Of a DNA stretch of 64,000 bases, positions 29,484 through 47,895 are shown one piece after another. A model generated the notes under the pieces. It was not told the origin of the DNA. It ran no database searches and saw nothing but the letters and a program-made list of their open reading frames with translations. Within the stretch, counting starts at the first letter, position 1, and each line of letters opens with the position of its first letter. Source of the DNA: Candidatus Kerfeldbacteria bacterium. Lineage in GTDB: Bacteria; Patescibacteriota; Patescibacteriia; SBBC01. A program made the translations under genes and the position numbers. The stretch is from positions 79,461 through 143,460 of the forward strand of contig JAZDNT010000003.1 in NCBI GenBank assembly GCA_043799405.1, read 5' to 3'.

Positions 29484-29524
29484 TTATCCCTCTATGGTAA
29501 TGCCCATGTTCCAGGCAGTACCCT
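29484..29524 (-). pseudogene. remnant of the rplK 3' end (12 codons plus stop)
   Basis: Reads GTAWNMGITIEG-stop, against L11 [13 protein letters not shown]-stop. The 22-nt core 29503-29524 matches 31896-31917 at 21/22 positions. An in-frame TAG lies just upstream. Confidence 0.75.
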
Positions 29525-29631
29525 AAAAAAATGCTTACAGTACCTTCACAGACTACCAAAGCCACGAGAAATTGGCAATGTGAACGGATTTTTACTCACG
29601 TAATAATCGACTTCCTAATACACTTAATTAA

Positions 29632-31842
29632 TCATAATCCCCGCCAACCAGATGATGGCGTGCATACCATCAACCAAGATTCAAAGACTGTCATCCGTCC
29701 ATATTCAGACGCTTCGTCACAATCACCATCTATGGGCATGGTGGTGGTGGGGATTTGAATGTAACCATCTGCTACCTGTAGTCTGCTCTTAGGATTGGTG
29801 GTATTGATACCAACATTACCGTCGTTGCCAATGGTCATCCAAAAGGCTCCGCCATCATATGACCGGAAATTTATCTTCCCCGCAGGATTCCCGCTCGTTG
29901 TATTCCAAAAATTGAAATCTGTACCTCCATTACCATTCGTATCAGCAGAAATGTGTGGATTCCAATTCCCAAATGCTAAAGCACCAGTATTTTGCGGAAT
30001 AATCAGCTTTTCGATCCGCGCCCAGCCAGCTACGTCCAAAAAATATTGCGGGTCGGTAGTGTTGATTCCAATACCTGATCCGTTTTGGTAAAGACCGGAG
30101 TTCTGGATCGATGTGCTGCCGTTAAATCTGGAAATATACCCATAGGTTGTGCCTCCGGTTCCACTGCCGCTGACTGAAGCTGGAAGAGTTGCGCACGAGA
30201 GAGAACTACCGACTCCACTCACATATTGACCAGCCGGGCAAGCTGCGGGAAACGTCGTCAGCCGCGGCCACGGCACGTTACCGCCAGTGAGAGTTCCGGC
30301 CCAGTTAACATCGCTTCCAAACGACGCCGCACCGGTGGCATTCATAGTCCCAGCCACGTCGAGCTTGGCTCCAGGGCTTGTCGTCCCAATGCCGACATTA
30401 CCGTTATCAAAAATCGAAGAGTTAGTAATTGTGGTGCCAGCAGTGAACTTTGCCAGGTAATTGTTTGTGCCGCTCCCCCCGATAAAAGTCGGTACTCCAG
30501 TCAATCGCGGCCACGGCACCGAACCTGCCAGCAACGACCCGCTCCATCCTACATCACCGTTGACATCGAGTTTATATGCCGGGCTCGTCGTCCCGATACC
30601 GACGTTGCCTGCCAAATAGTTTATTCCACTACCAGTTTGGTAAATACCATAAGTCCCCGCACTTGCTGTTTTTATATATAGCCCGTAGTTATGAATTCCG
30701 ACAGTAGCAGTGTTATCAAAATATCCTGCATAAGTATAACCGTATCCGCTTGGTACGCCTGCCGCAGTAGCCTCTCCTTTTACACCAATCGCCGTGCCAG
30801 CTCCATTTATTTCTGCCTGGTTCCCAATACCATATACACCAATACCTGGACCCCTGCCCGTATCATATACGATACCATTTGCTGTTCCTTTTACAGCAAC
30901 ATTTCCACCATAGCCGATATTGTGTGCGGCAGTTGCATCAATAGCAATAGTACTGACAGTATCATTGGCGCTCTGCTGAGTAACAACGAGACCCTTCAGT
31001 GTTGGTGATGCGCCAGTTGCTGCGCCGTTACTTCTGTTAATATATAATCCAATTGGTCTTGTTGAACTTAGATCATTAACTTCCAACATAGCACCAGGAT
31101 TCGTCGTCCCAATGCCGACGTTGCCACTGGGATCAATCCGCATGCGCTCGATCAAATTATTCGTCCGGAAGATCCAGGCGGAATCTTCAGAAACATCAAC
31201 GAATTCCAATCCTCTGGTCGTTGACATAATGATGTTTCGCTTTCCGGAGGGCCCTCCATTGATCAGATCGATCAAGGGCGAATTTCCTTGGCCGGTATTG
31301 CGAGGAGTGAGAACGATAGTGTTGGCACCGGTGCCGACTTCGGTCCCTCGGTTATCGTCCGCCTGTATGGACAGTTTGTTATTCGGCGCTGTTGTGCCAA
31401 TCCCGACGTTGCCATTGTCGAAAATTGAAGAGTTGCCAATGGTCGTGCCAGCAGTGAATCTTGCCAGGTAATTGCCTGTTCCGCTTCCGCCGATAAAAGT
31501 CGGTACTCCGGTCAGCCGTGCCCACGGTACTGCCCCAGCTAATAATGATCCGCTCCATCGAACATCGCCCACGACATCAAGCTTCGCCGCCGGCGTCACT
31601 GTGCCAATGCCGACGTTGTCAGTGATCGTGTCCAACTGAACGACTGACCCGAGTTTCAGCCAACCATAGGGATTACCACTGGCACCGGTATCTTCTGCAA
31701 GCATTTTCATTGGCATTGCAACAACTCGGGTAACGCCAATAAGAAAAAACACTGCATACACAACAATTACCACCATCCTTAATTGTCGGTGTGGATAAGT
31801 CCTGGGCTTTAAAGAAAAGCCTGAATCATTCGAATTTTCCAT
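29632..31842 (-). CDS. large membrane-anchored surface protein with phage tail-fibre-like NVGIGTT repeats
   Basis: 736 aa. N-terminal TM helix. At least 6 occurrences of GNVGIGTT(S/N/A)P..KL(D/S/E)V. Two about 65-aa modules (LLAG.VPW.RLTGVPTFIGGSGT.NYLA.FTAGTTI.NSSIFDNGNVGIGTT). Confidence 0.7.
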   Translation of the reverse strand: MENSNDSGFSLKPRTYPHRQLRMVVIVVYAVFFLIGVTRVVAMPMKMLAEDTGASGNPYGWLKLGSVVQLDTITDNVGIGTVTPAAKLDVVGDVRWSGSLLAGAVPWARLTGVPTFIGGSGTGNYLARFTAGTTIGNSSIFDNGNVGIGTTAPNNKLSIQADDNRGTEVGTGANTIVLTPRNTGQGNSPLIDLINGGPSGKRNIIMSTTRGLEFVDVSEDSAWIFRTNNLIERMRIDPSGNVGIGTTNPGAMLEVNDLSSTRPIGLYINRSNGAATGASPTLKGLVVTQQSANDTVSTIAIDATAAHNIGYGGNVAVKGTANGIVYDTGRGPGIGVYGIGNQAEINGAGTAIGVKGEATAAGVPSGYGYTYAGYFDNTATVGIHNYGLYIKTASAGTYGIYQTGSGINYLAGNVGIGTTSPAYKLDVNGDVGWSGSLLAGSVPWPRLTGVPTFIGGSGTNNYLAKFTAGTTITNSSIFDNGNVGIGTTSPGAKLDVAGTMNATGAASFGSDVNWAGTLTGGNVPWPRLTTFPAACPAGQYVSGVGSSLSCATLPASVSGSGTGGTTYGYISRFNGSTSIQNSGLYQNGSGIGINTTDPQYFLDVAGWARIEKLIIPQNTGALAFGNWNPHISADTNGNGGTDFNFWNTTSGNPAGKINFRSYDGGAFWMTIGNDGNVGINTTNPKSRLQVADGYIQIPTTTMPIDGDCDEASEYGRMTVFESWLMVCTPSSGWRGL
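30383..30575 (-). repeat. intragenic module repeat, copy 1
   Basis: An about 190-nt segment roughly 80% identical by eye to 31394-31586, at an offset of 1011 nt (337 codons). Confidence 0.7.
31394..31586 (-). repeat. intragenic module repeat, copy 2
   Basis: Partner of 30383-30575. Confidence 0.7.
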
Positions 31843-31876
31843 AGGATTGGGATCCTTTCAACCCAACCCTACCCCC

Positions 31877-45702: not shown

Positions 45703-45833
45703 TTTTTATTCTTATCCTCTTCCTGATTAGGCTCTTTTGTTGGATATGTTGGAACAGCAACTCCCTTTTCAATTTTAACACTCGGATCATTTTGCTTTTG
45801 ATCCGGTTCATTTTCCTTATCTTGATCGTACAT
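45699..45833 (-). CDS. small acidic/lysine-rich peptide
   Basis: 44 aa from ATG 45833, which lies 1 nt after the gyrB stop. ATGA overlap with the next gene. Low complexity. Confidence 0.35.
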   Translation of the reverse strand: MYDQDKENEPDQKQNDPSVKIEKGVAVPTYPTKEPNQEEDKNKK

Positions 45834-45834
45834 A

Positions 45835-47895
45835 TTAAATATCCAAATTCTGTACTGACTTCGCGTGCGTCGTGATGAAGCGCTTGCGAGGTGCGACTTC
45901 TGCGCCCATGAGGATATCGAATATCTCGTCGGCCTTTTCCGCGTCCTCAATCGTGACCTGCTTCATGATGCGGCTCTTCGGATCCATAGTGGTTTCAGCA
46001 AGCTGCTCCGCGTTCATCTCGCCCAAGCCCTTGTAGCGCTGTACTGAAACGCCAGTTCCTATCGAGACCGTTTCGCCTTCGGGCGTCTCCCCTTCCTGCT
46101 CGAGTCCGATGACCGCTCCTTCGAGCGTCAGCGTTACGTCCTTTTTCACCGGTTTTCCCTTTATCGGTTTCTTTGCCTTTTCCTCTGCGCCTTTTGACGC
46201 CAGCTGCTTCATGAACTTGTCGCGCTCGTCGTCGGAAAACGCGTAGTGGTGCTCTTTACCTTTCCCAACACGGTAGAGAGGCGGCTGGGCAATGTAGATG
46301 TGTCCTTTCGAAATGAGGTCAGGGAAGTACCGGTAGAACAGCGTCAGAAGGAGCGTCCTGATGTGCGCGCCGTCGACGTCTGCATCGGTCATGATAATGA
46401 TGCGGTTGTAGCGGAGCCCCGAAATGTCGAACTGCTCGCCGATGTTCGTGCCGAGCGCTATGATCAAAGACTTCACCTCGTTGTTCGCGAGCATTTTATC
46501 GAGCCGCGCGCGCTCAACGTTCAGGATCTTGCCCCTAAGCGGCAGAACTGCCTGAAATTCGCGGTCTCTCCCCTGTTTTGCGCTTCCTCCGGCAGAATCC
46601 CCCTCAACGATGAAGATCTCGCTCTTGCTCGCGTCCCGTGAACTGCAGTCCGCGAGCTTTCCCGGGAGCGTCATGCCCTCCAAAGCGCCCTTCCGCAAGA
46701 CGGTTTCGCGTGCAGCGCGGGCTGCGACGCGTGCGCGCTGCGCAAGTATAACCTTGCCGACCATTGCTTCGGCATCGCGCGGGTGCTCTTCAAGGAACTC
46801 CGACAGGGTTTCCGTAACGACGCTGTCGACGGCGGACTTCACCTCGGCATTGCCGAGCTTCGACTTTGTCTGCCCTTCGAACTGCGGTACTGGAACCTTG
46901 ACGGAAATGATGGCGGTCAGCCCTTCGCGAATGTCATCTCCTGTCAGGTTCTCGTCCTTTTCTTTAAGGTACCCCTGCTTCCGGGCATAGTTATTGATGC
47001 TTCTAGTCAGCGCCGTCCGGAAGCCTATGAGGTGCATGCCGCCCTCGGTTGTAAAGATGTTGTTCGCGAAAGAGAAGACGGTCTCTTTGTAGTCCTCTGT
47101 GTACTGCAACGCAGCCTCGACACGGACCTTATCGACCTCCTTGTCGACGTAGAAGACGCCGACGTGCTTGACGTCCTTGTTGTGGTTCAGGTGCTTAACG
47201 TAGCTTTCGATCCCGCCCTCGAAGTAGAAGGTGTACTGCTTGTAGGGCCGTAGGCGGGAATCGATGACGTGGATCGTTACACCCTTCGTGAGGTACGCCT
47301 GCTGCCGAAGGTGATCGAGAACGGTCTGTAAGTTAAAATCAAGAACGGTGAAAACCTGGGGATCAGGCTCGAACATGATCGTCGTTCCGGTCCCGCGGGC
47401 TGCGCCAACTGCCGATACCTTTCCGGTCGGTTTACCGCGCTTATACTCCTGCACCCAGAGCTTTCCGTCGCGCCTCACTTCGGCGCGCATCCAGCTCGAC
47501 AGCGCGTTCACGACGGAAACGCCAACGCCATGCAAACCACCTGAAACCTTGTAACCTCCCTCACCGAACTTTCCGCCGGCGTGCAGCATGGTAAGGACAG
47601 TTTCGAGCGCGGATTTCTTCGTCTGTGGGTGCTTGTCAACAGGAATGCCCCTGCCGTTGTCGGAAACGGACACCCTGCTCCCCGGTTCGAGGCGCACCTC
47701 GATCCGATCGCACCGGCCTGCCATTGCCTCGTCGATCGAGTTATCGACGACCTCCCAGACAAGGTGGTGGAGACCTTCCGAGGCAGTGTTCCCGATGTAC
47801 ATGCCGGGACGCTTCCGCACCGGCTCGAGACCTTCGAGCACAGTGATCTGCTTCGCGGTGTACTCCTGTTTTTTCTGTTCTTTTTTCTTCGGCAT
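45835..47895 (-). CDS. gyrB: DNA gyrase subunit B
   Basis: 686 aa. [49 protein letters not shown]. Confidence 0.97.

Follow-up and report, generated by a model that had tools for sequence, protein, structure and literature searches.

In a 64-kb stretch of DNA from Candidatus Kerfeldbacteria, an uncultivated ultra-small bacterium of the Candidate Phyla Radiation (CPR), the housekeeping genes gyrB and rplK (ribosomal protein L11) are each followed by a cassette of accessory genes and then by a displaced copy of their own last codons. By their codon differences and by their matches to other genomes, the tail copies are alleles from diverged lineages and not decayed duplicates, and remnants of the same kind recur in several CPR lineages. 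We give an even chance to the view that homology-anchored additive integration of diverged relatives' DNA, in the manner of homology-facilitated illegitimate recombination (HFIR), left them as scars. The whole 64-kb stretch is called the window throughout, and the loci from relatives' genomes that were compared with it carry L-numbers (L001, L002 and so on).

Displaced gyrB and rplK tails in the window

The GyrB protein encoded in the window was 100% identical to a Candidatus Kerfeldbacteria GyrB in the database, with the nearest relatives at 81-86% identity. Nearly all genes of the region lie on the minus strand, as do gyrB, rplK, their displaced tails and the cargo genes, and they are arranged in the order pheT, gyrB, a variable stretch of 12.7 kb, secE, nusG, rplK, a gene for a 736-aa protein, a DUF5671 gene, rplA, dcd and tmk.

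The intact gyrB gene (45835-47895) is full-length and in frame. Its last 152 nt (45835-45986) are present a second time as a direct copy at 44311-44462, which is 82% identical (self-BLAST E 4.6e-37), contains no indels and comprises approximately 47 codons in frame plus a stop codon in register with that of the intact gene. In line with this, the gyrB tail duplication claimed by an earlier sequence-only reading of this DNA was confirmed. The cassette between the gyrB stop and the remnant measures 1.37 kb. It opens with ORF44 (open reading frame of 44 aa; 45699-45833; GC 0.35), which begins 1 nt past the gyrB stop, shares an ATGA overlap with the next ORF and had no match in family searches. 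It is followed by ORF158 (45226-45702; GC 0.30), a predicted membrane protein of 158 aa that matched only itself among 5.8 billion proteins and showed a weak, sub-threshold match to the Pfam family 8xMP.

Beyond ORF158 lies a 46-nt 5' fragment (45179-45224) of a second copy of s66, the gene for a 66-aa membrane protein whose complete copy is found further downstream (43408-43608) and which is a conserved gyrB-downstream neighbour in the clade, with homologs behind gyrB in L014 and L019 and one more present in L015. This s66 head is 76% identical to the start of s66 at 43563-43608 (E=0.006) and encodes MNPDLDKRLKELEKE, compared to MDPDLDKRLAELEKK in s66. Thereafter comes ORF222 (44468-45103; GC 0.52), encoding 211 aa, or 222 aa if read from an upstream TTG, with a signal-peptide-like N-terminus and a weak, sub-threshold PsbP Pfam match; its homolog was not found in the 85 loci compared, and its stop lies about 5 nt ahead of the gyrB remnant. 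The order in the window is therefore gyrB tail, cargo, s66 head and remnant, with ORF222 placed between the last two. Within ORF222, 171 nt from the conserved ATGAAGCAGGTCACGAT motif with which the remnant starts (44424-44443), a 20-nt segment (44615-44634) shows 85% complementarity to this motif, which may be due to chance.

The rplK case has the same layout. Intact rplK (31877-32302), which ends in LTVEE and a stop, is followed after 34 nt by the 736-aa gene (29632-31842), whose product, taken to be a membrane protein, has an N-terminal hydrophobic stretch and internal repeats and had no Pfam, PADLOC or NCBIfam match. The rplK cassette spans 2.35 kb, and behind it lies a displaced 3' tail of 41 nt (29484-29524), consisting of 12 codons plus stop and encoding GTAWNMGITIEG. 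The copy aligns over 37 nt (29491-29527 vs. 31884-31920) with 81% identity. In a window-wide self-BLAST this match was weak (E=0.016); against the local downstream DNA it scored 23, with 11.8 +/- 1.5 for 200 shuffles, none of which reached 23, and the duplication proposed for rplK was thereby upheld. The stop of the remnant is in register, and the ATG of the DUF5671 membrane protein gene (28493-29479; Pfam PF18920), the native neighbour of rplK, follows 4 nt later, ahead of rplA (ribosomal protein L1; 27641-28333). The retained rplK tail includes the GAGGG sequence that precedes the DUF5671 start codon, and its retention would preserve translation initiation of DUF5671. Since a simple scan of the coding strand from rplK to the 736-aa gene found no terminator-like site, this cargo is probably co-transcribed with rplK.

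Empty sites in relatives, a comparison that had been suggested beforehand, were found for both genes. In L002, L006, L007 and L018, the closest relatives, rplK is followed by DUF5671 within 4-60 nt and then by rplA, an order also seen in L006-L016, L018, L020 and others. The distance from the rplK stop to the DUF5671 start in L006 is 4 nt, the same as behind the remnant in the window. Further, the 736-aa gene had no homolog in any of 80 rplK loci taken from species-representative genomes. For gyrB, a tail in L004 is followed by a hairpin-rich region and a GIY-YIG gene, as found past the remnant in the window. The claim that the downstream gene had kept its original spacing thus held for rplK; for gyrB it was borne out loosely, the order in L004 being the same and the spacing different.

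Concerning the nature of the copies, 16 of the 22 nucleotide differences between the two gyrB tails fall at third codon positions, and 13 codon differences are synonymous (including a Ser TCA/AGT switch) vs. 5 that are nonsynonymous. Under a model of duplication in situ, with one copy evolving neutrally and the other under purifying selection, 35% synonymous differences would be expected, and the observed excess was significant (P=0.0014). The counts for nine independent remnants add up to 53 synonymous vs. 17 nonsynonymous codon differences (P=3.8e-12), an excess that is biased upward since several remnants were detected at the protein level; switches between the six-fold codons of Ser and Arg occur between tail copies. 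The 82% identity of intact and displaced gyrB tails is like that between gyrB tails of different species (72-86%). The GC content at third codon positions (GC3) was 0.72 in the intact tail and 0.76 in the remnant, neither of which differs from the gene average.

The remnants also match the C-termini of other lineages. The rplK remnant ends in GITIEG and a stop, exactly as in L006 (ITIEG; 31 of 33 nt identical, by reading both sequences), and the intact gene ends in GLTVEE, exactly as in L018. The gyrB remnant has PASR, as in L001, where the intact copy has PKSR. Likewise, the rplK remnant of L026 matches rplK of other taxa, and the intact tail of that genome remained unmatched at the same threshold. 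Because the differences are mostly synonymous and the remnants match other lineages' C-termini, the copies are alleles from diverged lineages, and the description of the remnants as decayed copies is misleading. The five amino-acid changes in the gyrB remnant lie at positions that are the same in nearly all of 40 homologs inspected, so that slight decay has taken place since displacement. The assignment of the native copy draws on adjacency and on L006 and L001; on this basis, the gyrB remnant at 44311-44462 would be the native allele and the last 150 nt or so of intact gyrB the incoming, donor one.

The distance from the gyrB stop to nusG varies widely across the clade, from 250-380 nt in many lineages, where it holds essentially secE alone, up to several kilobases; L002 has 7.5 kb and the window 12.9 kb. 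Given this range, the 3' side of gyrB is a hot spot for the independent build-up of accessory DNA. The variable island starts at the gyrB stop and is bounded at its far end by secE (32947-33135) and nusG (32395-32940).

Gene-end remnants in related genomes

Other genomes were searched with a register-aware scan, which requires at least 8 of a gene's last 13 residues followed by an in-register stop within 5 kb downstream, with reversed tails as the control. The scan returned 15 hits vs. 1 for reversed tails in the first 86 sequences, and 4 vs. 0 in 80 further metagenome loci. The cases described below are those left after removal of tandem paralogs.

At gyrB, remnants were detected in the window and in six other loci of approximately 125 with a gyrB 3' end. 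L013 carries 63 nt behind a 60-aa membrane ORF; L030 has 41 nt, with all seven codon differences synonymous, behind a 187-nt insert containing a hairpin; and L049 has about 54 nt spanning the stop, 91% identical, behind a 121-nt insert with terminal inverted repeats. In L004, a mini-remnant of 21 nt with four synonymous differences follows a 44-nt insert, and a distal remnant of about 33 nt is found in both L003 and L004, separated from the gene by an S24 peptidase gene in L003 and by the hairpin region and GIY-YIG gene in L004, so that L004 carries three successive versions of the gyrB tail. Counted from the end of the stop codon, the remnants begin at five positions, approximately -152, -63, -41, -33 and -21 nt, and only those of L030 and L049 share a start.

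At rplK, remnants were found in 3 of approximately 86 loci: in addition to the window, L026 retains 16 codons behind 86 nt, and L045 retains 9 codons behind a 75-aa coiled-coil ORF, with differences that are all synonymous and include six-fold switches for Arg and Ser. A further remnant lies on the reverse strand of L105 (about 7200-8950), where an 84-nt tail of a deaminase-like gene (328 aa) is repeated behind two ORFs which, by reading of their translations, form a HigB/HigA-like toxin-antitoxin pair; the two tail copies differ only in their last 13 nt. In the same loci, nusG, rplA and pheT showed no remnant. The short inserts of L030, L049, L004 and L026 showed no detectable homology to one another, and each contains a hairpin, which is consistent with donor terminators. 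Gene-tail scars are uncommon, and of the proposal that they mark a systematic route for adding cargo, their recurrence in several CPR lineages stands and a high frequency does not.

The third case put forward for the window, a tentative one at a HAD hydrolase gene, was not there. The last 50 codons of this gene gave a best downstream score of 12 vs. a shuffle mean of 11.6, the register-aware scan returned no match, and no tail copy was present at the DNA or protein level. The HAD and M32 genes of L003 and L004 occur in the opposite order and are 36-42% identical to those of the window, and they are therefore not simple orthologs.

Several junctions join pieces of conserved gene neighbourhoods. 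In L003 and L004, the distal gyrB remnant (about -33) is fused directly to approximately 57 nt of an s66 head, to read EKKVDEM joined to HA(G/E)SVQNLDI and a stop. As s66 is normally downstream of gyrB (L014, L019), this block of gyrB tail and s66 head is a piece of the gyrB-s66 interval of another genome. The junction is common to two independently assembled genomes and shows sequence divergence between them. A mirror image was observed in L004: the first 47 nt of a HAD gene are kept at the original position behind an 81-aa gene and are followed by unrelated DNA with two ORFs and then by a complete HAD gene with a different head. L003 represents the empty site for this displaced head.

The same two genomes share a 933-nt block (L003:13284-14216 vs. 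L004:12721-13653) that is 97.7% identical, in contrast with 75-83% for core genes. It covers the gyrB tail remnant, a 120-aa gene, the 81-aa gene and the HAD head, and it ends inside the s66 head and the HAD head. The block points to recent exchange; it shows that DNA does pass between lineages some 20% apart and that the exchanged piece can terminate within the short conserved ends of genes.

Repeats of another kind were also present around these genes. In L072, L036, L063, L041, L040 and L070, short intergenic repeats of 50-150 nt and 77-96% identity were found around nusG, rplK, rplA and gyrB, with at least five copies in L072; such repeat families are not gene-end remnants. A 147-nt repeat upstream of gyrB and nusG in L040, considered as a candidate remnant, was rejected as an AT-rich intergenic repeat.

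How the displaced ends may have arisen

In the sequence of events that we favour, a fragment of DNA from another CPR lineage, probably linear and perhaps acquired by competence, would be taken up, spanning the 3' part of a highly conserved gene and the donor's downstream DNA. It would pair with the resident gene via the conserved coding sequence. On the pairing side the exchange would resolve seamlessly and in frame, and the gene would now end with the donor tail, and the non-homologous far end of the fragment would be joined illegitimately a few tens of bases upstream of the resident stop. Past the cargo, a fragment of the resident gene would survive, namely its tail, and with it the next gene's ribosome-binding region and spacing. 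No recombinase encoded by the incoming DNA would be necessary, repeated events would stack cargo and tails behind the gene, and a mirror-image event anchored in the downstream gene would displace 5' heads.

Both intact genes of the window are full-length and in frame with a foreign-type tail. Unrelated sequences are joined where the s66 head (about +57) meets gyrB (about -33) in L003 and L004, where the ORF222 stop lies some 5 nt from gyrB (about -152) in the window, and where the HAD head (+47) abuts unrelated DNA in L004. With regard to the means of uptake, Com DNA-uptake genes are reported to be conserved across CPR bacteria, and Saccharibacteria have been shown to undergo natural transformation by homologous recombination (PMC10633639).

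The sequence-only reading had offered two routes, a recombinase acting in trans on the 3' ends of housekeeping genes and the integration of circularised fragments from related strains by a single crossover. The latter is the closer of the two, since relatives' DNA does seem to integrate via conserved-gene homology, as the allelic tails and the pieces of gene neighbourhoods indicate; a single crossover within diverged segments of 21-63 nt is implausible for most cases. A Campbell-type event, in which a circularised fragment running from a gene tail to downstream DNA integrates by one crossover in the tail homology and duplicates it, has a topology that fits every case, and circle closure could have produced the s66-gyrB fusions of L003 and L004. 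Both tails of L045 are followed by a perfect 25-nt repeat, which is a possible crossover site. In Escherichia coli, duplications of 109-950 bp have been attributed to single crossovers of circularised molecules (PMC3240628). However, the remnants of L013, L030, L003/L004 (distal) and L004 (mini) have segments of 21-63 nt with longest identical runs, by reading, of about 5-13 nt, well below what homologous recombination needs. As these segments are too short and too saturated with synonymous differences for an internal crossover, a long anchor elsewhere in the gene is simpler, and a long anchor further inside the gene with one illegitimate join would fit better than a crossover in the duplication. 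We therefore consider the Campbell route unlikely overall, though possible for the longest repeats and for L045.

Duplication in situ with decay of the spare copy, or chimeric assembly of metagenome reads, would also give the topology of a tandem duplication, and all data come from contigs of metagenome-assembled genomes, with the window junctions lacking an independent assembly. Against decay of one copy stand the synonymous excess, the matches of remnants to other lineages' alleles and the non-homologous cargo on either side of the scars. Against misassembly, the s66/gyrB junction is found in two independently assembled, diverged genomes and, except for a 24-nt block in gyrB, the copies have no identical run long enough for a k-mer mis-join. 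Both explanations thus appear quite improbable.

Site-specific elements at the 3' ends of gyrB and rplK, with a replacement tail in attP, would have to be recombinase-less, like cis-mobilizable elements (CIMEs), and mobilised in trans. The layout is indeed the product of integration into gene 3' ends, and integrative and conjugative elements (ICEs) and integrative and mobilizable elements (IMEs) are known at the 3' ends of fda, rplL, rpsI and tRNA genes. Scars were concentrated at gyrB and rplK in the first locus set, the remnants of L030 and L049 begin at the same gyrB position behind inserts that both end in TGGGG after a long hairpin, and identical blocks lie at the 5' edges of remnants (24 nt in window gyrB, 13 nt in L030, 11 nt in window rplK). 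These blocks, however, coincide with codons conserved in all relatives, and no identical core was present in the L004 mini-remnant or in L013. The varying starts of the gyrB remnants speak against a fixed site, no shared motif was seen at the remnant junctions, heads are displaced as well as tails, and genes other than gyrB and rplK are affected. Further, no Pfam match to an integrase, transposase or serine recombinase was obtained in the cassette ORFs or in any large ORF of the window, in agreement with the earlier statement on the cassettes, and no recombinase was found in ten large island ORFs scanned from relatives or in the precomputed Pfam lists for L001-L005. Within the ORFs and loci scanned, neither a recombinase nor a constant position with an identical core was thus found, which leaves the proposed trans-acting recombinase unsupported, and we regard site-specific elements as rather doubtful.

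Other element types left no corresponding signature. The window contains no reverse transcriptase domain, and the gyrB copies differ by all types of base change, concentrated at third positions, unlike the product of a diversity-generating retroelement. Target-site duplication by a transposon or insertion sequence was likewise without its signs: no transposase was detected, the repeats are 21-152 nt long and diverged, and terminal inverted repeats occur only in the 121-nt insert of L049. Matches to Rfam families, tRNA or tmRNA were absent from the window, and RNA genes and tRNA-type att sites were rejected on this basis.

A GIY-YIG nuclease-domain gene (43630-43920; 96 aa; Pfam PF01541, E=4e-16) lies 390 nt beyond the gyrB remnant, and its product is 85% identical to that of the gene in the corresponding place in L004. 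Such an enzyme could act in homing, by cutting naive gyrB tails and leaving one-ended repair to copy a resistant, recoded tail with its cargo, the native tail being kept. The gene adjoins gyrB tails in both the window and L004, the tails are synonymously recoded and the remnant lengths vary, as resection would predict. Nevertheless, the only Pfam domain of the protein is the GIY-YIG catalytic one, with no recognisable DNA-binding domain, no nuclease gene is present at the insertion in L003, L013, L030, L049, L026, L045, L105 or window rplK, and no relative of it, or of the 736-aa protein, was found in viral contigs. We judge this capture model very unlikely indeed. A related and broader proposal, a dedicated CPR targeting system with its landing pads in the final codons of gyrB and rplK, would rely on a trans-acting recombinase or on one-ended repair initiated by GIY-YIG, with cargo units whose synonymously recoded tails serve as attachment or immunity sequences. 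We hold it to be improbable; if true, it would be a new class of recombinase-less mobile cassette targeted to gene tails.

Several observations weigh against homology-anchored additive integration itself. The 80 additional metagenome gyrB loci contained no gyrB remnant, and homologs of the cassette genes were absent from the 85 loci compared. A donor genome was not found; the protein-database searches took gyrB, ORF158 (an orphan) and an ORF with a seven-transmembrane (7TM) domain as queries. All sequences compared are metagenome assemblies; for the window junctions no independent assembly was found, exact-protein look-ups of the DUF5671 and GIY-YIG proteins being empty. The upward bias of the pooled synonymous excess belongs here too. 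In sliding-window comparisons, relatives were all 72-83% identical at the nucleotide level, and the profiles pointed to neither a crossover point in gyrB or rplK nor a native copy. The cargo adjoining the intact gyrB tail has a GC content of 0.30-0.35 vs. a tail GC3 of 0.72, the normal value for the genome, and cargo and tail thus lack one simple shared origin. An additional event has to be assumed for ORF222, which separates the s66 head from the remnant. Both points imply a history more complex than a single event. RecA-type pairing at about 20% divergence is expected to be very inefficient. The main mechanistic caveat is that, from work on E. coli conjugation, true HFIR is predicted to delete recipient DNA, and that the duplications in the same study were ascribed to circularised molecules (PMC3240628).

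Neighbouring features, known systems and significance

Past the gyrB remnant, a hydrophobic 38-aa ORF (44191-44307) begins 3 nt after the remnant stop and is given as context only. The window (43985-44100) and L004 (L004:12185-12300) share a conserved, hairpin-rich and partly palindromic stretch of approximately 110 nt that immediately precedes the GIY-YIG gene. It folds into a hairpin of about 70 nt, but as the region as a whole was not significantly more stable than shuffles (z=-1.6), it was rejected as a structured element.

Further into the gyrB-nusG island, positions 38150-41000 have a GC content of 0.59-0.61 and many overlapping ORFs on both strands. A sub-threshold Mu Gam-like match is located at 38794-39327, an SRAP peptidase gene adjoins the stretch, and a 222-aa protein encoded within it is conserved in L002 and L004. 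The stretch could be the remnant of a prophage or mobile element. As to the rplK side, the DUF5671 gene is found between rplK and rplA in Kerfeldbacteria and several related CPR lineages (L006-L085), where it splits the usual L11-L1 pair; in lineages without it, a conserved GTGGGAG...CCAC motif follows rplK and resembles an L1-binding leader.

Elsewhere in the window, a low-GC island (9300-14650; 0.30-0.42 vs. about 0.55 elsewhere) contains tandem stand-alone HisKA_7TM membrane proteins, a methyltransferase and ORFs of unknown function. It lies directly upstream of a gene for a 935-aa histidine kinase, whose 5' third is low in GC as well. The 7TM-only ORF at 13832-14545 was considered as a fourth case, namely as the displaced head of the histidine kinase gene (7682-10489) with a low-GC cassette between them. 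This was rejected because stand-alone 7TM proteins of approximately 219 aa are conserved (50-82% identity), the whole cluster is conserved in L166, and 7TM-only genes occur in tandem in L167. Two adjacent ORFs of unknown function, probably diverged paralogs, share a direct repeat of about 120 nt (15667-15789 vs. 16315-16433; 67% identical, E=3e-7). Tandem repeats with a period of about 198 nt (62157-62800; 78% over 309 nt, at least three units) lie inside a gene for a 777-aa subtilase-family protein (61606-63939).

Among known systems, reports on C-terminal displacement in loci of the rearrangement hotspot (Rhs), contact-dependent inhibition (CDI) and type VI secretion system (T6SS) type reportedly include that of Jackson et al. 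2009. Such displacement, with orphan 3' ends, is known in Rhs, CDI and T6SS effector loci, and HFIR has been proposed as its cause (Kirchberger et al. 2017, PMC5361080). There, a new 3' end with linked genes enters via homology with the constant 5' part of a gene, the old 3' end is retained downstream, and arrays result; displaced ends of this sort were found here at gyrB and rplK in the window, and an array in the three tails of L004. In contrast, the genes targeted here are housekeeping genes present in single copy, their cargo bears no relation to them, and 5' heads are displaced too. Moreover, the tails encode essentially the same peptide, the conserved C-terminus of GyrB or L11, with neither functional diversification nor an immunity logic, where effector loci have toxic tips and immunity genes; the cargo proteins had no toxin, immunity, defence (PADLOC) or NCBIfam match. 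Among literature compared by mechanism terms rather than by CPR-specific descriptions, C-terminal displacement is the closest described pattern, of which the present one is a variant at housekeeping genes.

In natural transformation, HFIR has been described for Acinetobacter, Pseudomonas stutzeri and Streptococcus pneumoniae, according to passages in PMC5361080 and PMC3240628. The likeness consists of one homologous anchor, one illegitimate end, the lack of an element recombinase and organisms that are expected to take up DNA. It differs in that deletion in the recipient is expected, whereas here the join falls inside the anchor gene and leaves a short duplication, and in that donor and recipient are about 20% diverged. 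Single-crossover insertion-duplication (PMC3240628) shares the succession of intact gene, cargo and partial gene copy, but it needs a crossover in the duplicated stretch, which the shortness and divergence of most of the present stretches do not allow.

With ICEs, IMEs and CIMEs, the present loci have in common a replacement 3' end that keeps the gene intact and a direct repeat at the far side. Tandem accretion and recombinase-less derivatives are known for these elements. They are set apart by the absence here of an integrase where one was searched for and of a fixed att position or core, by cargo down to 44-200 nt and by displaced heads. Neisseria has minimal mobile elements, variable cassettes that are flanked by conserved genes and exchanged by transformation. 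They resemble the gyrB-nusG gap (250 nt to 12.9 kb) in being a hot spot with lineage-specific cargo and no mobility genes; they enter, however, by double crossover and leave no duplicated gene ends.

CPR bacteria have tiny genomes with few recognisable mobile elements, and their means of acquiring genes are poorly understood. From the displaced gene ends described here, both tails and heads, we suggest a route of gene gain that would need only DNA uptake and recombination anchored in highly conserved genes. Along this route, new genes would land directly behind strongly expressed essential genes, and the start region of the next gene would be preserved, a possible reason for compact operons to tolerate, or even favour, the duplication. 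As each scar records an earlier allele, such remnants could help to work out, in uncultivated organisms, which lineages gave and which received DNA and in what order the events took place.

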